Below, piece by piece: positions 21,298 through 35,493 of a stretch of DNA of 64,000 nt. The number at the start of each line of letters is the position of its first letter. Position 1 is the first letter of the stretch. The DNA is from Chthoniobacter flavus. GTDB lineage: Bacteria > Verrucomicrobiota > Verrucomicrobiia > Chthoniobacterales > Chthoniobacteraceae. The position numbers and the translations under genes were made by a program. The notes below the pieces were generated by a model, which worked only from the letters and a program-made list of their open reading frames with translations, ran no database searches and was not told where the DNA came from. The stretch covers positions 36,484 to 100,483 of the forward strand of contig CAMAUX010000010.1 in NCBI GenBank assembly GCA_945861435.1, read 5' to 3'.

Positions 21298-24200
21298 CTA
21301 AGGGAGCAGGAGTTTGCGCATGCCCTCGACGAGGGCGAGCGGCGGGCGGTCGAAGAAGATGCCTGAGTCGTTGGACTGCGGCTGGATGCCGCGGAGGAAG
21401 AGGTAGAAGACGCCGCCGAAGTGGTTGTCGTAATCGTAGTCGCGGACGCGGCGCTGGAGGTGGAGGTGCGCGGCGAGAGTGTAGAGGTGGTATTGGAGGA
21501 AGTAGGAGTGCTCGTGCATGGAAGCGCGGAGCTGTTGCTGCCCGTAGTCCTGAACGCTGCTGCCGAGCCTGTTGGACTTCCAGTCGAGGAGGTAGAAGCG
21601 GCCGTCGTGTTCGAGGAGCAGGTCGATGAAGCCGTGCAGATAGCCTTCCTCGAATTGCAGCCGGATGTTCTCGAGGGTGTCCGGGAACTTCTGCGGAATG
21701 GCGTCGCTGGCGTGTTTGCGGAAAAGTTCCGCAAGGCGGGAGCCTGTGTCAGAGCGGTTGCCGGGCTTGAGATGGATGTGGAATTCGGTTTCTGCGCGGC
21801 GGTGCGCCGGGGCGATGTCGGCGAGACGGAAAGACTTTGGATGGAGTGGAGTTTCGAGGAGTTCTTTGAGGGCGGTCTCGAGCTTGGGTTTCCAGAACTC
21901 CTTCTTCGCGATTTGGAATGCCGCGAGATTCTCGTCGAGCAGGGAGCCGAGGTTGTCGGCTTTCTGGAAGTCGAGTTTCTCGAGGATTTGGTGGAGGCAC
22001 TCGCCCGGGCGTGCGCCTGCAGGGAAGTCCGCGAGGGGGACGGGAGTCGGGTCCTTGATGGGCGGAAGAGTGGGTGCGGCGTCATCGCGGTCCATGGGAT
22101 TGTTTTCTCCGCCAGCGAGGGCGGAGTAACTGGTCATGGTGACGCGTCGGAGTTCGGAGCGGGTGATGGGGCGCGGTTTGAGGAGCGGCTGCGGAGCGCG
22201 GTCTGACTTGAATGCGGCGAGTGCCGCGTCGGCGTCCGGGTCGATCGACGAGTGTGCGAGGAGGGTGGGCTTTGCGTCCACGAGCGCCTGCATCGCTGAG
22301 GCGGGCTCCTCCTGGCCGAGGAAATGTGCGAGCGGCGAGTCGGCAAAGCCTTCGAAGTTGCCGAGGTAAACCGTGCAGCGGTGTTTGGCGCGGGTGAGTG
22401 CCACGTACAGGACGCGGAGGCTCTCCGTCTTCTTCTCCTCGAGTGCGAGACTGCGTGCTTCGGCGTCCTTTCCCGTGAGCTCGTAGGTGGAGTGATGGTC
22501 TTTTGCGGGATCGCGGAAGAGGGTGCCGCCTTTGTCTGAAATCCATGCGCCGCGCCAGAGGGAGGGACAGAAGACCATGCGGTACTCGAGGCCCTTGCAC
22601 TTGTGGATCGTGGCGACGACCACGGCGTCGCCTTCGGTGTCGAGGCGGAGCTGATGTTCTTCCGGCGCGGTGGTGTCGGAGTTTCTTTGAGCGACGAGCC
22701 AGTCGAGGAGGGTTTCCGGAGCGAGCCTGCGTTCGCTTGCCGCTTGGTGCAGGAGTTCTGCGAGGTGAAGGAAATTGGTGAGGCTGCGTTCACCGCCTTC
22801 GCACCCGAGGAGGCGGGTGCGGAGATGGAAGGTGAGGGAGAGGTGGCGGAACAGGGCCATGAACCCGGAGCGCTTCCACAGGAGGCGCGCGGCTGCGAGT
22901 TGATCGACCCATGTCTGCCAGCGGCTCTGGTCCTTTTCTGCATCGAGAATTTCCACGGCGTTGCAGCCGAAAAGCCGGGTGGCGAGACCTGCTTTGATGG
23001 TGCGCGTGTTGCGCGGTTCAAGGACGGCGGCCATCACGCGGGCGAACTCGGTGGCCTCTGGCGACTCAAAGACACTCTCGTCCGTCTTAAGCACGCAGGG
23101 GATGCCGCGTGCGCGGAAGAGGCGGTGGACGGCGGCTGCCTCCTTGTTGGATTGGACGAGAACGGCGAGGTCGCCGGTGTGCAGGGTTTTCTCCCCGACG
23201 GAGGGGGGTGCTTGTTGGAAGCGGATCACGTCGGCGACCACTGCTTCGAGGCAGAGCCGTTCGGCATCCCACCGGGAGATTGGCTCGTCCGAGAAAAGGT
23301 GGCGGAAGCGGAGGGGCGGTGAAGCGGGTGAAAGCTCCGTGATCTTTGGGGGCTTTGGAGGGTTGACTGGGATGTACTGGATCTGTGGATGGAGGAAGGC
23401 GCCGGCGGGGTTGGAGGTCTGGAAGAAGGCGTTGAGGGCGTCGAGCAGGGGGGCTTCGGAGCGGTAGTTGGTGTCGAGGGTGTACTGGTGGGAGGTGCTG
23501 CTGGCAGCCTTCAGGTAGGTGTGGATGTCGCCGCCGCGGAAGCCGTAGATGGCCTGCTTGGGATCGCCGATGAAGAAGGTGCGGCACGGTGGAGGGAAAG
23601 CTTCTGTGAAGATCTCGTACTGCACGGGGTCCGTGTCCTGGAACTCGTCGATGAGCGCAGCCTTGTACTTGGCGCGGAGGGTGGATGCGAGGGGGGCGTC
23701 GTCTTGCAGACCTTCGCGCATGTGACGCAGGAGATCATCGAAGCTGAGGGTGTTGCGGGCCTCCTTGCGAAGGGGAAGCTGCTGGCGCGCGAAGCGAGCG
23801 CACTCGTGGTCGAGTTCAATGCGGAGGGGTTTGAGGCTCTCTACGAACGTCTCGCAGGCGGAGAAGAAGGGGTGGGTGCGAAGTGCCTGGCCCTTGTTGG
23901 TGGCCTTGGTTAGTTTGGCCTGCGACAAGTGGGCGATGGCATCCACAACGCCCTCCTCAGGACCGCTTTCCGAGAGCGAGAGGAGCGAGTCGAGCGCGGC
24001 GAAGTGGCGGTCGTTTATTTTCTGGGAAAACTGGCGGCCGTTCAACCCGGGCGCGGCAATGATCGTCCGGATCGCGGCGCCCTCAGAGCCCCATGTTTTG
24101 GAGAGGCTATCGAGGGATTGGGTGAGGCCCTGTGCGAAGTTTTCAAAAGCCTTCCCATCGGTGTTACTCCCGAGGGTGCTTGCGGGCGTGAGGACAAGGT

Positions 24201-24804
24201 CGGGATGGTTGCTCAACTCGTTCAGCAGAGGGAGCCACCGGGAAACCTGACACTTGTCCGAAGCGGCCCAGATGCTGAGGAGGGCGGCGTTGCGTCCGTA
24301 GAAATGGTGGCGCCAGAAATCGTGGAGGACCTCGCGGAGGAGCGGCTTGGTGTCGGTGGAGAGTTCGGCGCCGAAACGCACGCCGCTCTCGAAGGCATGC
24401 TGCTGGAGCGTGCGCTGGCAGAAGCCATGGATGGTGAAGATCTGTGCCTCGTCAAAGGAGCGCAGTGCGAGGTCGAGCGCGGCCTCACCCTCTGCCGCTG
24501 GATGGCAGCGCAGGAATGCTGCAACGACAGGTTCCTTGCTGGAAATTGAATCGATTCCTGGCTTGCGGAGTTCCGTCAGCGCCTCGTGGATGCGCGTGCG
24601 GATTCGGTCACGCAGTTCGCGCGTGGCCGCGACGGTGAAAGTGACGACAAGAATCTCCGGGAGCCTGAGACGCTCTGTGAGGAGCAGCCGAAGGACGAGG
24701 GTGCCAATGGTGTGGGTTTTGCCGGTTCCCGCACTGGCCTCGATCAGTGTCAGGCCCTGATGGAGAGGAGTGTGGACGGCGTCGAAGGCAGGGTGCGGAT
24801 TCAC
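21298..24804 (-). CDS. recB: exodeoxyribonuclease V beta subunit
   Basis: 1168 aa. The N-terminal UvrD-type motif is EASAGTGKTHTI. The C-terminal nuclease block GFIDLLLEHDGRFYLLDWKSNRLG closely parallels the E. coli RecB D-x-K nuclease motif. The GTG start overlaps the recC stop (GTGA). Confidence 0.95.
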   Translation of the reverse strand: MNPHPAFDAVHTPLHQGLTLIEASAGTGKTHTIGTLVLRLLLTERLRLPEILVVTFTVAATRELRDRIRTRIHEALTELRKPGIDSISSKEPVVAAFLRCHPAAEGEAALDLALRSFDEAQIFTIHGFCQRTLQQHAFESGVRFGAELSTDTKPLLREVLHDFWRHHFYGRNAALLSIWAASDKCQVSRWLPLLNELSNHPDLVLTPASTLGSNTDGKAFENFAQGLTQSLDSLSKTWGSEGAAIRTIIAAPGLNGRQFSQKINDRHFAALDSLLSLSESGPEEGVVDAIAHLSQAKLTKATNKGQALRTHPFFSACETFVESLKPLRIELDHECARFARQQLPLRKEARNTLSFDDLLRHMREGLQDDAPLASTLRAKYKAALIDEFQDTDPVQYEIFTEAFPPPCRTFFIGDPKQAIYGFRGGDIHTYLKAASSTSHQYTLDTNYRSEAPLLDALNAFFQTSNPAGAFLHPQIQYIPVNPPKPPKITELSPASPPLRFRHLFSDEPISRWDAERLCLEAVVADVIRFQQAPPSVGEKTLHTGDLAVLVQSNKEAAAVHRLFRARGIPCVLKTDESVFESPEATEFARVMAAVLEPRNTRTIKAGLATRLFGCNAVEILDAEKDQSRWQTWVDQLAAARLLWKRSGFMALFRHLSLTFHLRTRLLGCEGGERSLTNFLHLAELLHQAASERRLAPETLLDWLVAQRNSDTTAPEEHQLRLDTEGDAVVVATIHKCKGLEYRMVFCPSLWRGAWISDKGGTLFRDPAKDHHSTYELTGKDAEARSLALEEKKTESLRVLYVALTRAKHRCTVYLGNFEGFADSPLAHFLGQEEPASAMQALVDAKPTLLAHSSIDPDADAALAAFKSDRAPQPLLKPRPITRSELRRVTMTSYSALAGGENNPMDRDDAAPTLPPIKDPTPVPLADFPAGARPGECLHQILEKLDFQKADNLGSLLDENLAAFQIAKKEFWKPKLETALKELLETPLHPKSFRLADIAPAHRRAETEFHIHLKPGNRSDTGSRLAELFRKHASDAIPQKFPDTLENIRLQFEEGYLHGFIDLLLEHDGRFYLLDWKSNRLGSSVQDYGQQQLRASMHEHSYFLQYHLYTLAAHLHLQRRVRDYDYDNHFGGVFYLFLRGIQPQSNDSGIFFDRPPLALVEGMRKLLLP

Positions 24805-27800
24805 GGGGAGGCGTGTTGGGCTGCAAGCAGCGGCTGGTAAATCTGGAGGGCGAGCTGCTCGAAGCGCTGGGTGAATGGGCGTGGCGGGAAGCAGAAGGTG
24901 TGCGCCGGCTCATCACACTCCTTGTGGTCCATGAAAGTGGGACTCCAGGCGGAGTCGGCATCCTTGAAGGTAGCGGCTGGGGACTTGCGCTTCGCGATGG
25001 CCTCGGCGTAGGCGAGCGAGGTTTTGCAGAAGAAGGGCAGAGGCGAGGAGAGCCCCTCCCAGAACAACTCGAGAAGGCCTTCAAGCAAGCATCGGGCGTC
25101 TTTCACAGGGCCGAACGCGGTGTTCTTCTTGAGGCCGATGATGGTGGTGGCCGCGGGCTCGGGATGCACGATGGCGTTCCATGCAAGGTGGTATACCCAT
25201 CCCTTGAGGAGGTCCTTTCCTCGGATCTCCGCGTGCCGATGCTGGATGCGCTGCGTCTGTGCACCGTCGGCAGATCGGTAGAGGCCGTCGACGCTGCCCG
25301 TCAGACGGAACTTCCCGATGGGCAGGTCGATGGGAAGGGGCGCGACGGCCTGCATGCCATCGAGGGTGGATATCACCTTTTGATGGAACGCGGTGTAGTC
25401 GCCGATCAGCTCGTTGAGAACAGTTTTTCCAGAGGGCCCCACGGGCACGGAGCCCCTTGCGAGCAGCGCTCCGGGCGCCGGCTGGAGGCCGTTTTGCAGC
25501 ATCCCGATGATGGTCCCGCCAAGCAGGTACTTCTGCAGGGAGTCCACTGAGAACGGCTCGTCATCTTCGAGAGTCGTGTCCTTCTCGCGGAGGTTGATGC
25601 CGAGACGCTTCTCCAAAAGAAACCGAGGCGGCGCAGCAAGAAACTCCACGAGCCTTTCGAGTTCGACGGTGCGCCACTCGTCGGGCGGTTCCGGCAGCGA
25701 GGGGGCGAAGAAGTCGACGGGAAGCGCCTTGTCGTGAAGGCGCGCGGCCGCGGTCGCGTTCTCCGCGGAGTAACTCCAGAGACGGGTGGAATGCTCGTGG
25801 AAGTACGATGGGTTGAAGGCCTGGAGCGGGTGTTCAGTGAGAAGAAAGGGGCGCGCCTTGGAGTCATCGGGAAACCGCACCGCCTGGTCCAAGTAGTCGA
25901 TGAGTTCGTTGACGACCACGGAGGGCGGGCTGGTCTCGTTGTCCTGCACGGATCGCCCGACGTAGCTGATGTGGAGACGCGCGCGCGCCGCGAGGATGAG
26001 TTCCAGAAAGAGCGCGCGGTCGTCGTTGCGGACCGAACGGTCTCCGAGCCGGCGTTTCTGGGCGATGCGGTCGAAGTCCGCGCCCTGGGGCTGGCGCGGG
26101 AATGCACCGTCGTTGAGGCCGAGCAGGCAGATCACCTGCGCGGGAACGCTGCGCAGAGGCTGAAGTGCGCAGAAGGTGATGCCGCCGTTGAGGAATCCAC
26201 CGCGTTGCCGGGGCCGCTCGAGGAGCTGGGTGAGCGCGTGCCGGACGATCGCGAAATCGAGTGGCCCGGTGAAGGAGTCGGCTGCTTTCTCGAGTTGTGC
26301 GAAGGCTTCCAAAAGCACGGCGATGCCCTTGGGATCACGGTGCACGGGGTCGTCGTCAGAAGGAAAGAAGGCCGCGGGGATCCCGCGCAAAGCCGTGATC
26401 CATTCTGCGAGCGCACGCGGTTCGGCAAATCCCGTGGCGATGTCGGTCATGCGATGGAGAGCTTTGAGGAAACGATTGAGGAGATCCGCCCCGCTGCCCT
26501 CGATGGGGTCGTGAGGGAGGATGCCTTCAAACGTGCGGATGCCACCGCCCTGCATGGCGAAGCCGAGGAGGAGACGGTCGATGCCGGCGGCCCAGCTGTT
26601 TTCGTGGAAGGCGCTGACTTCGCAGAGCGCGCGGTGTTGGGAGTCGATCCCCCAGCGGATGCCGGTCTCGTCGATCCATTCAGAAAGCTGCGTGAGTTCC
26701 TTGGAGGAAAACTCGAACTTCGCGCGGAGCGGTGCGCGGTCCAGAAGCGCGTGGATTTCGGAGGCGGTGAAGCGGCTGCCAGGAAGGTCGAGGAGGGCGA
26801 GGAATGCTTCCACGGTGGGCAGTTCGCTGCGCGGCGCGCGATCGGCGATGTCGTAGGGAATCCTGTGGGAATGGGACTCCGGGGAGCCGAACACGGCGTG
26901 GATGAGGGGTGCGTAGCGTTCGATTTCCGGGGTGAGGACGAGGATGTCGCTGGGTTGAAGCGCGGGGTCGGCCTGGAGCATTGCCAGAATCTGGTCGTGC
27001 AGGATCTCGACCTCGCGCATGGGCGAGTGACAGGAGTGGACAACGATGGAGCGGTCTTGCGGATCCGCAAGGGTCCAAGGTTCGACAATCCCGCCGTTTG
27101 CATCGCGCACTCCGCGTGCGAGGTCGTTGAGGATGTCGTGCTGAAGCATTCTCAGGAGCGACGCGGGGTCGGCTTCGACAAACGTGCCGTCGGGTTCGTT
27201 GGCGGAGTCGATGATGCGTTCGGTGAGATCCAGCTGGACGAGGAGTTGTTCGTGAATGAGCCGGCCGAAGGAGGAGAGCAGCGGGTTGCCCACCCATTCC
27301 TGCGGCGCGTGGGAGTCGGTCCCTTCCTCTGCGCAGAGAAGGGTGAGGCGTGTGCGCGCCTGCGTCTTCCATGTGGGGTTTTCCGCCGCGAAGTTCTTCG
27401 ACGGGCGGAGTCCGTAGTGGCCGATGGGGCAGTGGGGCGCGAGTTGAAACAGGATCTCCCAGTGTGCGGGCGCGAGGGAACTGGTGCCGAAGATGCTGAT
27501 GCGCTCGGGAAGTTCGAGGGTGGGTAGTGCGTCCGCAAGGCGTTGGGGAAATAGTTCCAGGGCGGCTGCGAAATGTGCGGGACGGCCCGGCCCGGCCACT
27601 GCGCGCCAGAGGATCGCCTGCCAGTCGTCGCGTTCTGCGCCGCGATGTTCCCAGTCGCGGATCATGTCGGGGCGGTAGAGGAGGTAGTTGTCGAAAAGCT
27701 CACCGACACGCTGGGCCCAGAGGTAGGCCATCATGCCGGACGCACCGGTGAGCTCGAGGGGCGCGCCAGAACCAAGGCCCATGTATTTGCGCACGGGCTG

Positions 27801-28124
27801 GAACGCAGGCGTGTGAATGAGATGGGGGATCTGGCTGAGAATCATCCAGCCCATGGAGTCCCGCGTGAATTTCCCGAGATCCGCCGATTTTCCAAAAGCC
27901 CACCCGAGGACCCGCGACATGAGTTCGGCCGGGAATGGGAACTCCACGTCCATGCAGATGCCGTGGCGGCGTGCGAGGGTGAGGGAGAGCCAGCGGTGCA
28001 TGCCGGCGCTCTGGACAACAATGGTCTCCGGCGCAAGGGCGTTGGAGAGCGGTTGCGCGGCGAGGTGTTGTCCGAGCAAATCAGCGAGGACTTCGAGGCG
28101 GTTGCTGGTGTGAAAAGTGAGCAT
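24801..28124 (-). CDS. recC: exodeoxyribonuclease V gamma subunit
   Basis: ORF 24801-28214. I prefer the ATG at 28124 (MLTFHTSNRLEVLADLL), which matches the usual RecC N-terminus. Size and position upstream of recB-recD fit RecC. Confidence 0.9.
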   Translation of the reverse strand: MLTFHTSNRLEVLADLLGQHLAAQPLSNALAPETIVVQSAGMHRWLSLTLARRHGICMDVEFPFPAELMSRVLGWAFGKSADLGKFTRDSMGWMILSQIPHLIHTPAFQPVRKYMGLGSGAPLELTGASGMMAYLWAQRVGELFDNYLLYRPDMIRDWEHRGAERDDWQAILWRAVAGPGRPAHFAAALELFPQRLADALPTLELPERISIFGTSSLAPAHWEILFQLAPHCPIGHYGLRPSKNFAAENPTWKTQARTRLTLLCAEEGTDSHAPQEWVGNPLLSSFGRLIHEQLLVQLDLTERIIDSANEPDGTFVEADPASLLRMLQHDILNDLARGVRDANGGIVEPWTLADPQDRSIVVHSCHSPMREVEILHDQILAMLQADPALQPSDILVLTPEIERYAPLIHAVFGSPESHSHRIPYDIADRAPRSELPTVEAFLALLDLPGSRFTASEIHALLDRAPLRAKFEFSSKELTQLSEWIDETGIRWGIDSQHRALCEVSAFHENSWAAGIDRLLLGFAMQGGGIRTFEGILPHDPIEGSGADLLNRFLKALHRMTDIATGFAEPRALAEWITALRGIPAAFFPSDDDPVHRDPKGIAVLLEAFAQLEKAADSFTGPLDFAIVRHALTQLLERPRQRGGFLNGGITFCALQPLRSVPAQVICLLGLNDGAFPRQPQGADFDRIAQKRRLGDRSVRNDDRALFLELILAARARLHISYVGRSVQDNETSPPSVVVNELIDYLDQAVRFPDDSKARPFLLTEHPLQAFNPSYFHEHSTRLWSYSAENATAAARLHDKALPVDFFAPSLPEPPDEWRTVELERLVEFLAAPPRFLLEKRLGINLREKDTTLEDDEPFSVDSLQKYLLGGTIIGMLQNGLQPAPGALLARGSVPVGPSGKTVLNELIGDYTAFHQKVISTLDGMQAVAPLPIDLPIGKFRLTGSVDGLYRSADGAQTQRIQHRHAEIRGKDLLKGWVYHLAWNAIVHPEPAATTIIGLKKNTAFGPVKDARCLLEGLLELFWEGLSSPLPFFCKTSLAYAEAIAKRKSPAATFKDADSAWSPTFMDHKECDEPAHTFCFPPRPFTQRFEQLALQIYQPLLAAQHASP

Positions 28125-28305
28125 GCGGGGTGGATGCGGGCCGAACTCCCATGGGGCGGGGAGAGAGCGCAGGGTGGCGGTGAAGAGTATCGCGGATCGC
28201 GGCCGCGGTCTCAATCACGCACAGAGAATGGCACAGGGGGTGGGACATTGGCTGACTTACCCATGCCGGGTCGTTCTTTTGGAGCCGGGGCGGTCGATCA
28301 GAACG

Positions 28306-30006
28306 CTACTTCCTCCCCGCCGGCGGGAGAACGGCTTCGAATCGTGCATCCAGCGGGCTGGGTGATGGAATGGCGAGGTCGGCCTTGAGCATCTGGAAGA
28401 ACTCGGCGAGGCGTTCCGCCTTGGCTTTGAGGAATTTGTCGGTCTCGAGTCGGGCGAGGAACTGCTGGTCGCCGCGGCCCTCGTCGGCGAGACGGGCGGT
28501 CATGAGACGGGCGTAAAGGGTGGCGCGGTCGTCGGTGGCGATGTTCATGCCGTAGGGTTCTGCAAAGCCCTGCCACTGGGTGTTGTCTTTGTAGAATGTG
28601 GCTTGGTTGGGGGCGCCGGTGTTGAGCGCGTTGACGCGACCGATCTTATAAGCAAACCCCTTCTCGTTGAGACTTTCCCAGTTGGCTCCGTGAATCGGAC
28701 CGCCTTCTTTAGAAAACGCTCTGTCGATGAGGTGGAGCACTTCGTGGTGGATGGTTCTTCGGAAGAAATCCCGCGATTTGGAATTGGCGGGGTCGAAGGT
28801 GCGGACGCCATAGGCAAAGGACACCTGTGGCAGCCAGCTCATGCCCTGCCCGGCAACGCCCGAGCCCCGGAATGTGAAGTCGTGGAGGATGTAGAGGTTC
28901 TTCACATGGAGCCCCGCGGTGATCTGTGGCGGATAAATCTCCAGCTGCTCGCGCGCCATCCGGACGAACTCCTTGAACTCCCGCAGCTTCTTGTCGGTGA
29001 AGTAAGAGTACTCCAGACGCACCTTCTGCGGCATGGGCGGAACGGGCGAGTCGGGCTCCCAAAAGACCTTGAAGCCCCACTGTTTCTCGAGTGCGCGGAT
29101 ATCCGCCTGAATTTCAGGATCGGCCTTGATCTGGTCGACGCTCTGCGTGTCTGCGGGATCGTTGAGGCAGACAGTTCGCTGATGTTCGGGGATGATGGCG
29201 AGGGTCGTCCAGAAGGCCTGGTCAAACTGTGGGTCGAGCTGGGTGAGAAAGGACTGCACGGTTCCCATGCGCTGCTTCAGGCGAGCGTCTTTCTTTGCGA
29301 GGGTGGTGAGTTCGTTGAACTCGAACGGGTCCCAAAACATTTTGTAGATACCCTCCCGTGAATTAGCCGCTTTGGTCAGCCGGGCGCTTTCGCCCTCGAG
29401 GGTTGCATCGTCAGATTCGAGCGTCTTCCAATGCGGCAGCGCGAGAAGGGAGTCGGGCGCCTTCAAGTCCGCGAGGAGGGAGGAGAACAGGGTGTAATGG
29501 AGGGAACCCCGCCCGAGAACCTCGGTCGCCGGAGTCAGCGTGGTGGGAATGGTGACAAGGATCGAGTCGCTCGCCTTCTCAAGGATGAACGTCGGCGAGT
29601 AATTCGCCGTGGTGCCTTTGGCCGTCTTGGAAATATAGGCGTTCGCAAGGACCAGATTCTTCGGCCCGTGCGCCTTGATGAAACCCGCCGGGTATCTCTT
29701 CCACTCCGCCTCCACCCAGCCAAGGAGGGAGAGAGCGTTCTCCACATGCTCCACCTTCAAGGGGGTGATGTCATAGCTTTTCGCCGTCACGGGCTCGTCG
29801 CTCTGCGCCAATCGGAGCGTGATACCGAAGTCTGCCTGGAACTGTTGGGCGACCGTGCTGAACCCCGGTTTTTGAGGGATCGTGGCTGCATCATCCGTGG
29901 GCGCGCTCTTCTCCGCGGGGCTGGCGGGCGCGGGCGCTTGAGCAAATGCCCAGTTGGCGAAAGCGACGACAATAGCGAGTCCGCGGAGAGCCATGGGGGA
30001 GGGCAT
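28306..30006 (-). CDS. secreted protein with a C-terminal HExxH metallopeptidase-like motif and an apparent internal duplication
   Basis: 566 aa with signal peptide LAIVVAFANWAFAQA. There is a single HExxH at FFRRTIHHEVLHLID. The N-terminal half shows a similar but motif-less module (see findings). The family was not recognised. Confidence 0.7.
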   Translation of the reverse strand: MPSPMALRGLAIVVAFANWAFAQAPAPASPAEKSAPTDDAATIPQKPGFSTVAQQFQADFGITLRLAQSDEPVTAKSYDITPLKVEHVENALSLLGWVEAEWKRYPAGFIKAHGPKNLVLANAYISKTAKGTTANYSPTFILEKASDSILVTIPTTLTPATEVLGRGSLHYTLFSSLLADLKAPDSLLALPHWKTLESDDATLEGESARLTKAANSREGIYKMFWDPFEFNELTTLAKKDARLKQRMGTVQSFLTQLDPQFDQAFWTTLAIIPEHQRTVCLNDPADTQSVDQIKADPEIQADIRALEKQWGFKVFWEPDSPVPPMPQKVRLEYSYFTDKKLREFKEFVRMAREQLEIYPPQITAGLHVKNLYILHDFTFRGSGVAGQGMSWLPQVSFAYGVRTFDPANSKSRDFFRRTIHHEVLHLIDRAFSKEGGPIHGANWESLNEKGFAYKIGRVNALNTGAPNQATFYKDNTQWQGFAEPYGMNIATDDRATLYARLMTARLADEGRGDQQFLARLETDKFLKAKAERLAEFFQMLKADLAIPSPSPLDARFEAVLPPAGRK

Positions 30007-30231
30007 ACGGAGCGCAAGCTAACCCGGGGTGGCGATTGCTACGATGGCATTCTTGGTCATTAGACATATCCGGCCGGTGGCTATGTTCCGTAGGCTCGGT
30101 GTCCATTCTACTCCGGGGTGGCGCCATTGCACAGACGGTGACCGTGGCATGCGGGTGATTTCGCACGGCTACTGCGTTGTGACGCTTTCTCGGCTGTGCG
30201 TGTGGACTTCTGGTCAGTGCCTTCCTTTTCC

Positions 30232-30245
30232 CAATGCCGGCATTG
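30232..30245. promoter_or_regulatory. perfect 14-bp palindrome CAATGCCGGCATTG upstream of the ATP-grasp gene
   Basis: Seen directly in the sequence, 35 nt upstream of the ATG at 30280. Related ATTGC-containing direct repeats lie at 30024-30039 and 30113-30130. It is a candidate operator. Confidence 0.35.
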
Positions 30246-30279
30246 CCTGCGCGTCTCGTTTGCAGAGAGTAGGGCCCGT

Positions 30280-31176
30280 ATGGAAACCCCCGATATCATC
30301 GTCCTCACTGACGAACGCTATGAAGTGGCGGATGAAACGAGCTGGTACGTGTCCCAACTCATCCACGAGGAACGGTTGTTGATGGAGGGGCTGGAGGCGC
30401 GCGGTTTGCGAACGGCCCGCGTGGCGTGGTCCAATCCCGGCTTCGACTGGCAGACAGCCCGCGCAGCGGTGTTCCGCTCGACATGGGATTACTTCGACCG
30501 GTTTGCGGAGTTCTCCGCGTGGATGGACCGCGTGGCAACGGTGACGCGTCTTTTTAATGCGCCGGATCTGGTGCGGTGGAATCTGGATAAGCATTACCTC
30601 CGCGATCTCGCGGGACGCGGTGTGCAGGTGCCCGTGACCCGGTTCTTGGAACGCGGGGACACAACGTCCCTGCGCGAGGCATTTGCGGCGTGCGGTTGGA
30701 AAGAGGCGATCCTGAAGCCGGCTGTGTCCGGTGCAGCGCGGCACACGTACAGGCTCCACAGCGGCAACATCGATGCGCATGAGGCGACGCTGCGCGCATT
30801 GCTGCGCGAGGAAGCGATGATGTTGCAACCGTTCCTCGGCAGTGTGCTCGCGCAGGGCGAGATCTCGCTCATCGTCATCGGCGGACGCTGCACCCATGCG
30901 GTCCGCAAGATTGCCAAGCCGGGTGATTTCCGGGTGCAGGACGACCACGGCGGCACGGTGCATCCGCACACACCGACCGCCGAGGAGATAGCCTTCGCGG
31001 AGCAGGCAGCGGCAGCGTGTCCGCAGGCGCCGCTCTACGCGCGCGTGGATGCGGTGCGTGATGATGCGGGCGCGCTTTCGCTCATGGAACTCGAGGTGGT
31101 GGAGCCGGAGTTGTTCTTCCGATTCCACCCGCCAGCGGCCGATGCCCTGGCTGCAGCGATCGTTGCGAGATTGTGA
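30280..31176 (+). CDS. stand-alone ATP-grasp domain protein (RimK/glutathione-synthetase-like), substrate unknown
   Basis: From the ATG at 30280: METPDIIVLTDERYE...FRSTWDYFDR...NLDKHYLRDL...ILKPAVSGAARHTYRL...GDFRVQDDHGG. This pattern matches a widespread orphan ATP-grasp family. Confidence 0.75.
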   Translation: METPDIIVLTDERYEVADETSWYVSQLIHEERLLMEGLEARGLRTARVAWSNPGFDWQTARAAVFRSTWDYFDRFAEFSAWMDRVATVTRLFNAPDLVRWNLDKHYLRDLAGRGVQVPVTRFLERGDTTSLREAFAACGWKEAILKPAVSGAARHTYRLHSGNIDAHEATLRALLREEAMMLQPFLGSVLAQGEISLIVIGGRCTHAVRKIAKPGDFRVQDDHGGTVHPHTPTAEEIAFAEQAAAACPQAPLYARVDAVRDDAGALSLMELEVVEPELFFRFHPPAADALAAAIVARL

Positions 31177-31265
31177 TCAGCGGCCGTCAGGCATTCGAAA
31201 TCCACTCGCGTGGGAGCATCGCAAGGGGCCGAAGGCGACAGGTGAGATCTCCCTCATCATGGTCG

Positions 31266-31393
31266 TTCTCGCGCCCGCTGCCGGGGCGCGGTGCGTGGCG
31301 GGACGAAATCCGGTGGTTCCCTTCGTCCGCGTTGCGGACTGCGTCCACCGACCGGCTATTAGCTCTCGTGCCTCCGGCACGGCGACGTGGAGG
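31266..31393 (+). repeat. structured repeat element, copy A (candidate ncRNA)
   Basis: It aligns without gaps to 33568-33695 (offset 2302), with 96 of 127 positions identical by my hand count. Hairpins: GCGCCC/GGGCGC (31271-31289), GTCCGC-GTT-GCGGAC (31325-31339) and GTGCC-TCC-GGCAC (31368-31380). An enclosing stem pairs CGGTGG (31311-16) with CCACCG (31345-50). Confidence 0.6.
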
Positions 31394-31452
31394 TTCGGTG
31401 GCAGGGCGGCATGACGCTGTGGCTGTCTCGCGAGCACCTGTCTCTTGATCGC

Positions 31453-31617
31453 GCCGAAAGGTGCGCGGCCGAAAGGGGCGCGGTCGAAAGGGGCGCGGTC
31501 GAAAGGGGCGCGGTCGAAAGGGGCGTGGCCGAAAGGGACGTGGCCGAAAGGGACGTGGCCGAAAGGGGCGTGGCCGAAAGGGGCGCGGCCGAAAGGGGCG
31601 TGGCCGAAAGGGCGGGC
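31453..31617. repeat. 15-nt tandem repeat, 11 units (consensus GYCGAAAGGGGCGYG)
   Basis: Units start at 31453, 31468, 31483 and so on up to 31603. Variation is limited to four positions and the last unit is degenerate. The unit length of 15 (5 codons) keeps at least the three + frames and one - frame open, so the ORFs listed here are not evidence of coding. Confidence 0.9.
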
Positions 31618-31762
31618 GTTATCCCCCTCTTTCGCAGCTTTGTGCCTTTGTGTCTTGGTGTGACAAAGTGCTCCTCAATCACACGAAAGCACCAGGGCAC
31701 CAGGAGGATGTCTGCGAGGGACGAGTCTTGTTCCCGCGCCTTACTCCCGCGTCTGGGGCTGC

Positions 31763-32344
31763 CTAGATGGGGTCAGGCTTCCGGCGCGGTTTGCTTGGGA
31801 ACTGATTCGGGAAGAACTCCGAGATCCCATGCCATTCGCGCTTCTCGCCAAAACGGACCCACTGTTCGGCGACCAATCCCACATGAATGATGCACTCCAA
31901 GAGTTCGGCCTCGGACAAGGGCCCTGTTTCCCCAGAGTCCTGTTTGAGGAAAATGCCGCACCCGGCGCACTCTGGAAGATTGGCGAGGGTCGCCGCGCCC
32001 AGTTTCGAAAGTACGAACGCACTGAGGCGGGGATCGATCAGAGCGGCGCGCTTTTGAAACTGTTGACGGACTTCCTCGTAGTCGTACTGACCGCCCGCGA
32101 CGGGCAGCGGAGTGCCCTTGGCATGCAGGGGGTTGGTCTCCCCTGAATCAATGCGGGTATGGGTGAAGGATTCTGAGTGGGTCCACGTGAGGGAGCGCTC
32201 GTCCCTTTCCTTGTCGTAACAAAGTTGAAAGCCGTAGATGCCGCCATCTGGCAGATACCAGATGATCAGATCCATGTACGCATCCATGAGCCACATCCGC
32301 GGACGGTCTCCGGTCACTTCTCGAATTGGGGAGGGCTTGAGCAT
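31763..32344 (-). CDS. hypothetical protein with a C-terminal GYF-like (DUF4339-type) domain
   Basis: 193 aa. The C-terminus CGIFLKQDSGETGPLSEAELLECIIHVGLVAEQWVRFGEKREWHGISEFF fits the bacterial GYF_2 pattern. The N-terminal ~120 aa (MWLMDAYMDLIIWYLPDGGIYGFQLCYDKE...) were not recognised. Confidence 0.55.
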   Translation of the reverse strand: MLKPSPIREVTGDRPRMWLMDAYMDLIIWYLPDGGIYGFQLCYDKERDERSLTWTHSESFTHTRIDSGETNPLHAKGTPLPVAGGQYDYEEVRQQFQKRAALIDPRLSAFVLSKLGAATLANLPECAGCGIFLKQDSGETGPLSEAELLECIIHVGLVAEQWVRFGEKREWHGISEFFPNQFPSKPRRKPDPI

Positions 32345-32505
32345 AGGCAGTCACCGCACGCTGAATAAACCTTTGGAACAGCGGGGCTGCAAGGGACTGC
32401 GAATGACTATTGCGCCCGGCGCACTCGAAGCGGCCGGATCGTGGGCGGACGCCGGCGTTTGACGTGGGCTACACGATTTTCGATGCATCTACCGCGGCCC
32501 GAGGG

Positions 32506-33264
32506 CTACTCGCCCAGCGCGCCGCGCAATTCAGCGAGTTCACGGCGCAACTGCTGCACCTCGGTCTCCAGTGCTTGGAGACGCTGTTCCACCTCTGCAG
32601 GAATGGTCACCGCGACCGTCATCGGCGCGACTACCACATCCGCCTCGGCTGCGACTGGCTCTCCTGAGAGCAGCTGTGCCCAGCGCGCCTCTTTCTGCCC
32701 CGCAAGTCTCGGCAACTTACGAACCAGAGGACCATTTTTCCACTCGCTCAATGCAGACACCAGCGCGTCCACCTCGGCTAATGAGGGCATCCCGAAAAGA
32801 CGTTCTGAATTCGAACGCACCGCAGCTGAAGTCTGGGGGCCGCGCACAAGCAGTTCGCAGAGGATGGCTCGTTCCACGTCGCTCAAATCAAACACCTCTT
32901 CGAGCCTGTGCTTGAACTTCTGGACCCTTGAATCAGCCCCCGAAAACATGGTCGCCAGACGCCCCGCCCTCAACTCATCCAGCGCGATCTCCACCTCACT
33001 TGCGGAGGCGGACACCACGGGGTCGCGGTTGCTGCGTTGATTGCATGCATTCGTCAGCGCATTGAGGGAAAGAGGATACAGATCCGGCGTCGCGAACTCT
33101 TTCTCGATCAGACATCCCAGGACACGCGCTGCGAGCGCGGACAGGGGCTGCTTGAGTGGCATCGCTGAACTGGTTCCTGCCGGCTCTGGGGAGTTTTCAA
33201 AAGTTTCCTGCGGGGCCTGTTCCATATCGGTCTCTTTTACCTCTTCCTCCGCAGCGAGCCCCAA
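32506..33264 (-). CDS. yceH: DUF480 family protein
   Basis: LSALAARVLGCLIEKEFATPDLYPLSLNALTNACNQRSNRDPV...LLVRGPQTSAAV...LPRLAGQKEARWAQLLSGE aligns block-for-block with E. coli YceH, including the C-terminal coiled coil. The true start may be an internal ATG (MPLKQP...). Confidence 0.85.
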   Translation of the reverse strand: MGLAAEEEVKETDMEQAPQETFENSPEPAGTSSAMPLKQPLSALAARVLGCLIEKEFATPDLYPLSLNALTNACNQRSNRDPVVSASASEVEIALDELRAGRLATMFSGADSRVQKFKHRLEEVFDLSDVERAILCELLVRGPQTSAAVRSNSERLFGMPSLAEVDALVSALSEWKNGPLVRKLPRLAGQKEARWAQLLSGEPVAAEADVVVAPMTVAVTIPAEVEQRLQALETEVQQLRRELAELRGALGE

Positions 33265-33567
33265 CTTTTTTGGTGGTCCGCTCCCTCAACCTCCTTCCTG
33301 AGCCTGCGGGCGACGACCTTTCAGGGCGGTGGCGATCTGAGGGCGGTGGTGGCAAGAAGGCCCAAGTCCATGTCAACCCCTTCGCCTCCAGCGTTCGATG
33401 AGCCAGCCCAAAACTGTGGAGCGGGCCGAGAGGGTCGAAAAGGACAGGCGTGAATGGCACTTAGATAATGGGTTTCGCCGTGGTATTTGAGGGGGGCGAC
33501 GCTGGCGGGCAGACGCCTGCAAACAATGGAGCCGACGGGGCAAGCAAGGTTTCCTCTATAGTCCTGC

Positions 33568-33695
33568 TTCTCGCGCCCCAGCCCGGGGCGCGTCGCGTGG
33601 GGAAATGGGTTCCGGTGGTTCCCTCCATCCGCTTTGCGGATGGCGTTCACCGACCGGCTCAGTTCTTTCATGCCTCCGGCATGCGGACGGTGAGA
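33568..33695 (+). repeat. structured repeat element, copy B (candidate ncRNA)
   Basis: Partner of 31266-31393. Hairpins: GCGCCC/GGGCGC (33573-33591), ATCCGC-TTT-GCGGAT (33627-33641) and ATGCC-TCC-GGCAT (33670-33682). The enclosing stem pairs CGGTGG (33613-18) with TCACCG (33647-52). Confidence 0.6.
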
Positions 33696-33975
33696 TCGAC
33701 TGTTTCGTGGCCACGTTACCCCATCGAGGCATGGCCGATGCCGTTATTATTGAGAATCGCGAAATAGGGTGACCGCGCAGCGTCCAGAGTATGGGCATTC
33801 CGGATGTCACCGTAATGTACGATGCCCAATAATCCGGCCACAAAACACCAGCGATCGCGCGGGTCGATTTGGTTGCGCTTCGGCAGTGCACATTAGCTTC
33901 ATTCCTCGCTCGCCGGGCATCGAGACACTGCGTGCAGCGCATCATTACCGCGGGTATTCAATGGCCGGATTAATC

Positions 33976-34081
33976 CTAAAAACGTAAATGGACGGCCCAC
34001 GGAATCCGCGGACCGCACGGAAGGAATGAGGGGGCTGAGAGTCTGTTGCTTGGTCCGTGCATTCAGTGCGTTCCGTGGGCC
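33976..34081 (-). terminator. long imperfect hairpin followed by a T-rich tract on the minus strand (possible terminator or sRNA 3' end)
   Basis: An 11-bp perfect stem pairs GGCCCACGGAA (33994-34004) with TTCCGTGGGCC (34071-34081). An inner 7-bp stem pairs GCACGGA (34015-21) with TCCGTGC (34054-60). On the minus strand the hairpin is followed by GTCCATTTACGTTTTTAGG. Confidence 0.3.
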
Positions 34082-34329
34082 ATTGGGAACTCTCAGGGTT
34101 CGGGCGACTGCTGAGTCCTATCAGTGCCTGGGTATTTGAGGGTAACAGCCCTGTCGTTACCGAATTTGAAGATCGCTGAAAGAGACTCCCCCAACGGGTG
34201 AGTTTGAAACGGGATGATTTTAAGCTGCAAATTCCGTTTCCACAGAAACTCAAATCAGATCCGACAAGTTTTCATCGCCGCATTGAGGTTAATAACACGT
34301 GCCATTCAGGACAGGCGAATTGGCCTCGA

Positions 34330-35493
34330 TTATCGTCCCTTCCCGGCACCCGTCCGCTTGAGCCACGCAAGGGCGGCGGCCTCGCCTTCGTTGCGCATCC
34401 GCCGGCTGTATTCCGAAAGGACCTCCTCGTTGCGACTTTGGATGACTGGTTCCAATCCACCGACCGCCTCGCGCACGTCCTGCTTGATCGCGTCGATTTC
34501 CGCACGCAATTGCGCCGGGCTGCTCGAGAGCCACTCCGGACGGGCATCGGCTGGCAACTCAGCCAGCACACGCGCCTCCATGGAAATCCCGACGAGCTGA
34601 CCGATGAGGTAGCGTGAGGCTTCCGGGGTCGCAAAGATGCGGCCGAGACCGTAGGTGAGCCGGAGGGCCTCATCGGCTGCCGCAGCGTCGCCGGAGTCCG
34701 CCGCTTTTTTGCGCCACTCCATCAGCATCCGTGCGGTCTGGTTGACCTCTCCTGCGGGAACAAACGTCAGACCAGTCATCGCGAAGAGACTGGCCTCGGT
34801 GGGATGTAAGCCCATGGTCTCATAAAGCTGCTGCGCTGCATCCATCCGTTCGGTGGAATAAGTATAGAATCCAGAGTGTTCCAAAGCCTCGCGAACCTCC
34901 GCGACCGCGTCCGCGCTCGGTCCCGCCTTGAATCGTTCCTGCGCAGAGTAAATCCATGGCAGCGGATTATTCGGATCCGCAGCCTTCCATCGTTCGATGA
35001 GATCCACACGCTCCGCGTCTGCTCCGTATTGTTGGCCGACCTGCGCGGGTTTCTGAGGAGTTCCATCGATCGCCGCCATGAGGACCAACGGACTGTTTGG
35101 GAAAAGCGCGAGTGCACGGTCGAGCAATCGGCGGTCCCGCGTCCTTTGAAAGGCCACGACCAGATTCTCCGCCGTTTCGCCGTGCTTTGCGAGAAACCGG
35201 GCAACGTCTCCGGAGCTGGGTGCCGGAAGGGCGGATGCATCGCCGCCGTTCATCAGGGCGCCCAATCGTTGCCAATTCATGGAGGGCTTTTTCCCCGCGC
35301 CTTCAGCTACGGTTCCGGAATCGGAGCTTCTCGTGGAAGGCGCCTGAGGGCTCGGGGGGCCGGACTGCAGGGTTCGCGGCTCAACTGCGGCCGGAACGGG
35401 ATCGCCCGTGCCCGTCACCGACTCGATGAAGAACCACGCAGACGCGGCGATCAGGGAGAGACCGGCGAGGGCGAGAAGGGCGCGGAGGTTCAT
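34330..35493 (-). CDS. hypothetical membrane-anchored helical-repeat protein
   Basis: 387 aa with an N-terminal anchor (MNLRALLALAGLSLIAASAWFF), a low-complexity linker and a helical, TPR-like remainder. No family was recognised. Confidence 0.6.
   Translation of the reverse strand: MNLRALLALAGLSLIAASAWFFIESVTGTGDPVPAAVEPRTLQSGPPSPQAPSTRSSDSGTVAEGAGKKPSMNWQRLGALMNGGDASALPAPSSGDVARFLAKHGETAENLVVAFQRTRDRRLLDRALALFPNSPLVLMAAIDGTPQKPAQVGQQYGADAERVDLIERWKAADPNNPLPWIYSAQERFKAGPSADAVAEVREALEHSGFYTYSTERMDAAQQLYETMGLHPTEASLFAMTGLTFVPAGEVNQTARMLMEWRKKAADSGDAAAADEALRLTYGLGRIFATPEASRYLIGQLVGISMEARVLAELPADARPEWLSSSPAQLRAEIDAIKQDVREAVGGLEPVIQSRNEEVLSEYSRRMRNEGEAAALAWLKRTGAGKGR

Follow-up and report, generated by a model that had tools for sequence, protein, structure and literature searches.

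The stretch of DNA analyzed here, hereafter the window, comprises 64,000 nucleotides (nt) of contig CAMAUX010000010.1 (Chthoniobacter flavus, GenBank assembly GCA_945861435.1, positions 36,484 to 100,483). The intergenic DNA among four of its genes, which encode an ATP-grasp ligase, a protein of 193 amino acids (aa), a DUF480/YceH protein, and a protein of 387 aa, contains two similar noncoding elements, copy A and copy B, together with a 15-nt tandem array and several palindromic modules (Table 1). Here, we report that this pair belongs to a high-copy, interspersed, and modular repeat family of a freshwater Verrucomicrobiota lineage, and that the core of the element, about 146 nt long, is folded on the + strand into four consecutive stem-loop units with five helices, i.e., P1, P1b, the extended hairpin P2-P3, and P4.

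Table 1. Positions of the repeat pair, its helices, the surrounding modules, and the flanking genes in the window. Bits and E-values are those of covariance model R2.
Feature	Position	Strand	Description
ATP-grasp ligase gene	30196-31176	+	Flanking gene
Copy A core	31254-31399	+	146 nt, delimited by covariance model; 137.6 bits, E 1.8e-44
P1, copy A	31270-31290	+	CGCGCCC 31270-31276 with GGGCGCG 31284-31290; 7-nt loop
P1b, copy A	31291-31308	+	31291-31295 with 31304-31308
P2-P3 extended hairpin, copy A	31310-31355	+	Internal loop UCC
P2, copy A	31310-31317 with 31347-31355	+	CCGGUGGU with ACC(G)ACCGG; G31350 bulged
P3, copy A	31321-31330 with 31334-31343	+
Linker and P4, copy A	31356-31381	+	Linker CUAUUAGCUCU, 31356-31366
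P4, copy A	31367-31372 with 31376-31381	+	UCC loop
15-nt tandem array	31453-31612	+	GCCGAAAGGGGCGCG x 10.7; 54 nt after copy A; Tandem Repeats Finder (TRF) score 243
Tail module	31638-31706	+	Imperfect hairpin after the array, TTTGTGCC...GGCACC
193-aa gene	31763-32344	-	Flanking gene, no assigned function
DUF480/YceH gene	32506-33264	-	Flanking gene
Upstream box, copy B	33527-33555	+	GAGCCGACGGGGCAAGCAAGGTTTCCTCTATAGT; ends in TATAGT
Copy B core	33556-33701	+	150 bits, E 1.1e-48
P1, copy B	33572-33592	+	Copy A coordinates + 2302
P2-P3, copy B	33612-33657	+	Copy A coordinates + 2302
P4, copy B	33669-33683	+	Copy A coordinates + 2302
3′ extension, copy B	33702-33745	+	Common to ~20 family members (alignment A5)
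Spacer after copy B	33746-34245		Four palindromic modules; inverted-repeat arms of 21-28 nt
Module X	33746-33833
Module Z	33830-33972
Module Y	33994-34081
Module W	34151-34245
387-aa gene	34330-35493	-	Flanking gene, no assigned function

The repeat pair and its folded structure

A repeat search found one direct repeat of 127 nt (31266-31392 and 33568-33694, offset 2302) that is 76% identical without a gap and is the sole long repeat of the 64-kb window. This agrees with a preliminary description of the same DNA, which had counted 96 identical positions of 127 between two gap-free elements of about 130 nt. Covariance models built from relatives matched the two copies with 134-150 bits (E about 1e-40 or lower) and, with filters off, matched no further copy in the window; the similarity between A and B is not due to chance. 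In four further assemblies of the copy A locus, the core has the identical sequence. Both copies are outside the open reading frames with coding-like GC content at third codon positions and outside the genes called on a near-identical public contig (L079; loci and contigs are given by such L numbers throughout), so that their noncoding placement, also part of the preliminary description, is borne out. Copy B is antisense to both of its neighbor genes.

Covariation is the evidence that carries the fold. In a model-guided alignment of 51 copies, 89.1% of the cells are paired and double changes occur in 23 of 36 pairs, with a covariation score of 0.143. None of 500 shuffles reached this score (0.076 ± 0.005), and slid partners gave no more than 0.053. 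These numbers are flattered, since the alignment was fitted to the model. A plain MAFFT alignment left the picture for P1, P3, and P4 unchanged. By helix, double changes were found in five of seven P1 pairs (88.9% of cells paired), all five P1b pairs (78.8%), one of eight P2 pairs, seven of ten P3 pairs, and five of six P4 pairs (96.5%). P1b is good in most copies and weak in copies A and B, where three of its five pairs form. A base-by-base check also recovered the double changes between the two window copies that had been noticed earlier, i.e., GTCCGC-GTT-GCGGAC (31325-31339) versus ATCCGC-TTT-GCGGAT (33627-33641) in one hairpin and GTGCC-TCC-GGCAC (31368-31380) versus ATGCC-TCC-GGCAT (33670-33682) in another; in the 5′ hairpin, all four differences between A and B are in the loop, as had been stated. 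Single-sequence folding energy of the + strand is weakly better than that of shuffles (z = -1.3 and -2.25), and the evidence for structure is therefore the covariation and not the energy.

Two registers are possible for P2 because ACCG occurs twice. The preliminary description had drawn a stem CGGTGG/CCACCG enclosing the first hairpin; a stem is indeed there, but this is one of the two registers and the other is better supported. RNAalifold picks CCGGUGGU/ACC(G)ACCGG for P2, the second copy in L009 has a U:A to A:U change that fits this register and breaks the earlier one, and copies L039b, with its short P3 stem, and L050a have lost precisely the bulged G, in line with the RNAalifold register. 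The helices hold 60 G·U cells versus 23 A·C cells, and the + strand is therefore the folded strand. The same strand had been deduced before from a G-U wobble in the enclosing stem; the strand stands, whereas the register in which that wobble pairs is disfavored. Three unpaired motifs, GGUUCC, CUA, and CCUCC, are invariant even in the homologues from Verrucomicrobium sp. and from the metagenomes Ga0265327 and Ga0213850.

Other foldings were considered. An alternative helix CCCCAUG/CGUGGGG and an interaction between the P1 loop and P4 are both broken, without compensation, in the CCCGCUG subfamily (alignment read by eye). A long-range closing helix UCUCGC/GCGAG is possible; it would share positions with P1, and there is hardly any variation in its 5′ strand. 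Minus-strand hairpins with GGA of the CsrA type are disfavored by the wobble asymmetry, which favors the + strand. We also rejected a coding or type I toxin locus, as no frame is common to the copies (frames read by eye): the minus-strand frames differ between A and B, and the + strand ATG in P4 leads to peptides without conserved length or sequence.

A high-copy interspersed family

The family was collected with exact two-part patterns from the most conserved stretches of the element. The scan of 185,579 species genomes gave 33 matches with one true homologue, in Verrucomicrobium sp. BvORR034 (L009); the other 32 are chance matches, mostly in Actinobacteria. Loci L004 and L019 were discarded, as they share P2 words only (16 bits). 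A metagenome scan with the same kind of pattern gave 45 loci, of which ~33 are clearly true members, mostly from three related Joint Genome Institute (JGI) data sets. The covariance model R2, built from 34 copies (an earlier model, R1, had P1b one column off), then recognized 51 copies at E ≤ 1e-6 in 170,635 bases of related contigs, including copies without the search pattern, i.e., a further, diverged copy in L009, one further copy each in L039 and L040, and decayed copies. Four copies are visibly decayed (L054 1465-1602, L066 870-1017, L055 1949-2094, and L050 829-972). Where copies form arrays, these are mostly head-to-tail, with four copies ~207 nt apart in L066, three in L055, and two each in L036, L071, L064, and L050; inverted pairs occur in L054 and L039. 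Distant copies are those of Verrucomicrobium sp. BvORR034 and of the Ga0265327 and Ga0213850 metagenomes. The earlier idea of an RNA gene in two copies thus has to be given up for an interspersed family that has 51 copies in 171 kb, some of them in tandem arrays and some decayed. Viral contigs had no match with two patterns, and as far as these two scans reach, the family is not phage-borne.

Contigs often stop inside the element; at the copy A locus, four of five assemblies end in or just before it. Downstream of copy B, contig L079, which is 99.7% identical to the window, diverges from it at 34085, right after GGGCCATTG, and over its last ~650 nt (reverse strand) has an extra full element copy (identical to that of L047), a second module Y, and the contig end. 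This extra copy is due either to a strain polymorphism, with element and module Y as a tandem unit, or to an assembly join induced by the repeat.

The genes next to the copies are of no common kind. The 20 neighboring proteins that were scanned are unrelated and include AlaRS, a class II aldolase, LarA, TspO, DUF1501, a Na+/H+ antiporter, and XerC/D-like, DnaB-like, and PIN proteins; no transposase, REP-associated tyrosine transposase (RAYT), or reverse transcriptase was found among them next to any copy in the examined loci. Copies are located in convergent, tandem, and divergent intergenic regions and in both orientations, and the distance from stop codon to element is between 41 and about 500 nt. 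Where the flanks are known, most copies follow a co-oriented gene or are between convergent genes. A riboswitch or cis-regulatory leader was rejected on the unrelated neighbors, both orientations, and the lack of a constant position.

Among the homologues with organism names, those closest to the flanking proteins are from Opitutaceae (Rariglobus, Lacunisphaera, Didemnitutus; 59-62% identity) and from metagenome-assembled genomes of Chthoniobacter and Prosthecobacter (73-81% identity), and judged by these proteins the hosts of the family are Verrucomicrobiota. Around the orthologues in relatives, whose flanking proteins are 62-85% identical to those of the window, no copy was found in about 155 kb (partly redundant). 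Relatives have the orthologous ATP-grasp gene, are element-free after it, and have a different next gene within 0-186 nt. A comparison with empty sites through orthologues of both flanking genes gave no exact insertion boundaries, as synteny is not conserved. The family reaches high abundance in one lineage, is missing in the sampled parts of its relatives, and is low-copy in distant Verrucomicrobiota.

Upstream box and 3′ extension

With the alignment anchored on the start of the core, ~60% of copies have an upstream box with the consensus GCCGATAGGGACAGGCAAAATCTCCTCTCATCAT; that of copy A is diverged (about 31225-31253). The box is promoter-like in a loose sense, with xxGACA and CATCAT/TATAGT ~15 nt apart. 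A few boxes read GGTAGGGAC and have no palindrome after them. The best sigma-70-like match of the region is a different site, AGGACA-17-GATAAT at 33441-33469 on the + strand, ~100 nt upstream of copy B and within sequence that is repeated upstream of the copies in L045, L051, and L073. In L009, both tandem cores are preceded by a module TGCAGSCAAKGTRGAAGAGCCGTCCCGGCTCTTGG with an 8-bp hairpin and a UCC triloop (4832-4853 and 5318-5340), and in front of the second of these modules is GATAGGAC, a sequence similar to the upstream box of the window family.

The 3′ extension of copy B ends in a terminal hairpin, GGCAU-GGCCG-AUGCC (33728-33742), followed by GUUAUUAUU. The family form of this hairpin is GGCAYGNCCGAUGCC followed by U/A-rich sequence, which is terminator-like in the consensus scan; 85% of it is paired and there is one U:A to C:G double change, covariation that is not significant. 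RNAalifold gave no P5 helix in the 3′ extension. Copy A represents a subtype without the extension.

Array, tail, and palindromic modules

The preliminary description had pointed to unusual sequence after each copy, and both cases hold: an array of 15-nt units after A and four palindromic modules after B, where a structured spacer of 630 nt had been noted. The array is the only strong one that TRF found in the window. Its unit number and type vary between assemblies of the same locus; L079 has one unit fewer, and L089 has different unit variants, GGGGCGGGGCC. It is an ordinary variable-number tandem repeat (VNTR) inside a larger repeat unit. The tail module that follows it is also found downstream of the cores in L057, L065, L074, and L042, and it occurs behind other cores that have no array. 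With a run of GGGG every 15 nt on its + strand, the array could form a G-quadruplex.

Short arrays of unrelated units (7, 6, 9, 11, and 6 nt) occur 0-230 nt downstream of other cores (L040 2779-2853 and 2258-2291, L078 1-50, L042 1382-1418, L066 602-666, and L034 331-383); the L066 unit GGTGAAAGGCG resembles the window unit GGCCGAAAGGGGCGC. About nine short-period arrays are present in 179 kb, seven of them downstream of a core and one upstream. This enrichment is only marginal, because arrays and cores are both confined to intergenic DNA.

The four modules that follow copy B adjoin or overlap one another at TAAT/TTAA. Three of them (X, Z, and Y) were found again in other family contigs, X and Z in both orientations, which suggests that these modules are small elements like miniature inverted-repeat transposable elements (MITEs) that target AT-rich sites in a genome of 64% GC. 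The loop of module Y (34023-34031) has an 18-nt indel relative to L079, of GGGGGAAT-like units, i.e., a second small VNTR between assemblies. A match to RAGATH-12 at 34200-34276 (E 1.6) and a match to CRISPR-DR12 were regarded as noise.

Relationship with known systems

A search of the whole window against Rfam 15 at gathering thresholds returned no family, in accordance with the earlier statement that the element is not a tRNA, transfer-messenger RNA, signal recognition particle RNA, RNase P RNA, or common riboswitch. Permissive searches by E-value, made on the region and on ten loci, gave one recurrent match only, Acido-Lenti-1 (RF01687), at the same place in every tested copy: 22.6 bits over 31348-31381 in copy A, 21.8 bits over 33650-33683 in copy B, and 18.6-25.1 bits in 14 copies of other loci, with a gathering cut-off of 37. 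An nhmmer profile of the Acido-Lenti-1 seed ranked the homologous site of the family first in 120 kb, with E from 0.05 to 1. The preliminary description had recognized no known RNA family in the element; this is right at the gathering level, but the 3′ half has the architecture of Acido-Lenti-1 and matches it consistently below threshold.

The Acido-Lenti-1 seed consists of an 8-bp tetraloop hairpin, a 12-nt linker starting with CUA, and a 5-bp hairpin with a UYC triloop (RF01687; Weinberg et al. 2010, PMC2864571). It is described from Acidobacteria and Lentisphaerae, including Koribacter and Lentisphaera, with Rhodopirellula and Geobacter also in the seed; it is sometimes near group II introns in Lentisphaerae, was given no function, and was judged to be non-cis-regulatory (PMC2864571). 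Rfam files it as a small RNA (sRNA). In the published seed, a genome can have as many as dozens of copies, and those in tandem recur with periods of 69-200 nt. Our element likewise has an 8-bp P2 abutting CUA, a linker of 11-12 nt, and a P4 of 5-6 bp with a UCC loop, and shares the many copies, the head-to-tail arrays, and the lack of a fixed gene partner. It differs in several respects: the tetraloop is replaced by the internal loop and the 10-bp P3, P2 has a bulged G, P1, P1b, the upstream box, and the 3′ extension are extra, and the length is 146-300 nt versus 46 nt. As to the hosts, Verrucomicrobiota and part of the seed are both in the Planctomycetes-Verrucomicrobia-Chlamydiae (PVC) superphylum, but Verrucomicrobiota are outside the published range. 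The element probably works like Acido-Lenti-1 and is related to it; we do not file it as a member, because its 19-25 bits are below the formal threshold of the family. The most fitting description is a multi-copy structured repeat of the Acido-Lenti-1 type in a new and enlarged form.

Among the interspersed repeats of bacteria, repetitive extragenic palindromic (REP) sequences and REPINs are palindromes of 20-40 nt with a GTAG or CGTC tag, usually in inverted pairs and linked to RAYT (PMC3733652), and a high abundance of REPs has been reported for the verrucomicrobium Opitutus terrae. Our family has in common with these and with bacterial interspersed mosaic elements (BIMEs) the high copy number, strictly intergenic and often clustered placement, compensatory changes, and lineage-specific abundance. 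In contrast, its core is 146 nt long, is not a single palindrome, and has five helices and long invariant unpaired motifs, its arrays are mostly direct, no GTAG or CGTC tag adjoins a stem, and no RAYT is among the scanned neighbor proteins. The family is thus not REP or REPIN, because there is no tagged short palindrome and no inverted pairing, and it is not a canonical MITE, because there are no terminal inverted repeats. The family does behave in a REP- or MITE-like way, which takes something from the novelty claimed earlier, and it is itself not a described one.

Pneumococcal BOX, enterobacterial repetitive intergenic consensus (ERIC), and Neisseria Correia elements are intergenic repeats of 100-200 nt made of optional modules, with dozens to hundreds of copies. 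They form stable RNA folds when transcribed and affect neighboring transcripts; ERIC and Correia are long imperfect palindromes with terminal inverted repeats. Our family is likewise a modular, structured intergenic repeat, but has no sequence kinship with them and no terminal inverted repeats at its core. The BrickBuilt MITE of Porphyromonas gingivalis is built of a leader, a variable internal minisatellite, and a tail, with small inverted-repeat ends (PMC4596501). The layout at copy A, i.e., core, 15-nt array, and tail hairpin, is similar; however, every BrickBuilt copy has the minisatellite, whereas most copies of our family lack an array and the unit sequences differ where arrays are present.

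A proposed propagating repeat with a maintained fold

We consider the pair to be members of a propagating intergenic repeat family whose folded + strand is recognized, a reading to which we give a probability of about 0.5. It is favored by a sorting of stem variants by age in 30 intact copies. Private variants keep pairing in 35% of cases, about the neutral expectation, variants present in two to three copies in 52%, and those in four or more copies in 77%; per column, private variants amount to 0.36 at paired and 0.31 at unpaired positions. The terminal branches are ~1% per site versus a pairwise divergence of ~20%. The fold is therefore maintained along the source lineages and not detectably in individual copies, and this is the pattern expected of a propagating repeat, not of dozens of individually selected genes. 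Taken with the unrelated neighbors, the decayed copies, and the copy-free sampled relatives, the private stem changes, which look neutral, make a REP/BOX/MITE-like repeat fit better than dozens of individually selected sRNA genes.

In such a family, new copies would arise from a few source lineages with maintained fold, by dispersal or by duplication, and would then drift. The fold and the unpaired GGUUCC, CUA, and CCUCC could be recognized by a trans-acting factor during propagation; alternatively, they may be needed by a subset of the copies only. From a copy that is transcribed, by read-through or from its own box, a stable and structured stretch of RNA would result, as is the case for REP, BOX, and ERIC. 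Around the core, the upstream GATAGGGACAGGCAA box and the 3′ extension ending in the terminator-like hairpin are optional modules. The dispersal intermediate might be single-stranded DNA or RNA.

Several points weigh against a propagating repeat. For the core unit (the copy A unit was examined), there are no terminal inverted repeats and no target-site duplication, no transposase, RAYT, or reverse transcriptase adjoins any examined copy, and no orthologous site with defined ends is cleanly filled in one genome and empty in another, the synteny of the relatives being broken at the elements. The family boundaries are ragged and modular. The conservation of unpaired motifs across very distant hosts, and the promoter-like box and terminator-like hairpin of many copies, fit discrete functional RNAs equally well. 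With 10-25% divergence from one another, the copies are old for those of an active MITE. Please note also that the variant-age test was made on metagenome consensus contigs, in which some private variants may be assembly errors, and that ascertainment by exact patterns makes P2 invariant in most copies.

If the propagating-repeat reading is true, Verrucomicrobiota, a phylum with almost no described noncoding RNAs, would gain a well-supported family of five helices and dozens of copies, and the orphan Acido-Lenti-1 would become the conserved kernel of a larger group of structured repeats that amplify throughout the PVC superphylum. A handle on the recognizer would come from the P2 helix and from the invariant motifs GGUUCC, CUA, and CCUCC, and the family would offer a way to ask if bacterial structured repeats spread via DNA or RNA. 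On the practical side, such repeats break metagenome assemblies, and the VNTRs could be used to type strains. No new mechanism is revealed as yet.

Alternative explanations

Paralogous genes for trans-acting sRNAs are a credible although somewhat unlikely explanation. Each unit would be transcribed on its own, with the box as promoter, the core as a functional scaffold for a protein or RNA partner, and the 3′ hairpin as terminator, and tandem arrays would provide dosage by analogy with Qrr, LhrC, and Sib. Five helices covarying on one strand and invariant unpaired motifs in distant homologues are what such genes could be expected to have; the CATCAT/TATAGT end of the box a few nt before conservation of the core starts and the terminator-like hairpin after many copies are similarly suggestive, as are the Rfam filing of Acido-Lenti-1 as sRNA and its non-cis-regulatory status according to its authors. 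Divergent and antisense copies, where read-through cannot supply transcription, also favor genes of their own. However, ~40% of copies have no box, including the four tandem units of L066, the ~15-nt spacing between the -35-like and -10-like motifs is outside the sigma-70 range, and the covariation of the terminal hairpin is not significant. Decayed copies, private stem mutations that look neutral, and a very high copy number in one lineage with zero in the sampled regions of relatives count further against dozens of genes, and an anti-Shine-Dalgarno (anti-SD) role for the C-rich loops is unlikely, since gene starts here are without SD motifs; an anti-SD sRNA as such was rejected for the same reason.

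We regard as doubtful that the element is a cis-acting RNA module, i.e., a 3′-end protector, processing site, terminator, or insulator, roles of the kind proposed for REP/BIME and ERIC, with selection acting locally instead of on propagation. Stable GC-rich hairpins, the terminator-like 3′ hairpin, and the placement of most copies after a co-oriented gene or between convergent genes would suit such a role; between convergent genes, however, any orientation is co-oriented with one neighbor, so that the bias is uninformative. The proximity of Acido-Lenti-1 to group II introns in some Lentisphaerae might be read in the same sense, as some group II introns may target terminator-like stem-loops. 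A simple protective hairpin nevertheless leaves five helices and invariant unpaired motifs unexplained, and the mixed orientation in tandem and divergent regions, the antisense position of copy B, and the variable distance from the stop codon are not those of a module serving its neighbor.

Very improbable in our view is an element like a short interspersed nuclear element (SINE), whose folded + strand RNA would be copied into intergenic DNA by a reverse transcriptase encoded elsewhere, of group II intron type or other, perhaps with Acido-Lenti-1 as a whole included. It would explain the patchy, lineage-specific amplification. The G·U excess shows that the selected strand matches RNA, the structural constraint extends over the whole core and not the ends alone, and the source-lineage pattern of variation, the common head-to-tail arrays, and the occasional neighborhood of Acido-Lenti-1 and group II introns would also agree; so would the short-period arrays downstream of cores, with their differing unit sequences. 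But this array enrichment is marginal, no reverse transcriptase is near any copy, and the 3′ boundary is not sharp. The larger unit around the window array is present in other copies with no array in it, and slippage explains the window array, because its variation is that of an ordinary VNTR. To our knowledge, SINE-like elements have no precedent in bacteria.

The window has two copies only, equally oriented and 2.3 kb from each other, which might suggest a one-off local segmental duplication or chance similarity. This is refuted by the compensatory changes and by the dozens of copies that other contigs and other taxa have beside unrelated genes. Two further candidates were rejected: a template repeat/variable repeat pair of a diversity-generating retroelement, which is contradicted by mismatches without adenine specificity and by the lack of a reverse transcriptase, and attL/attR of an island with the 193-aa and DUF480 genes, as the two repeats are only 76% identical and dozens of unrelated loci have the repeat too.

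Other observations in the window

Upstream of copy A, the region 21298-31176 encodes a UvrD/PDDEXK helicase-nuclease, a recC-like protein, a 566-aa protein, and the ATP-grasp protein (DcsG_N/RimK). Nothing downstream of the ATP-grasp gene is kept in relatives; the divergent pair of the 566-aa and ATP-grasp genes is. Likely gene starts, such as those at 2618, 35804, 51092, and 19534, have no SD motif of the GGAGG type, and the sequence upstream of gene starts is often C-rich (ccacctccccc); translation initiation in this organism may thus proceed largely without SD pairing.

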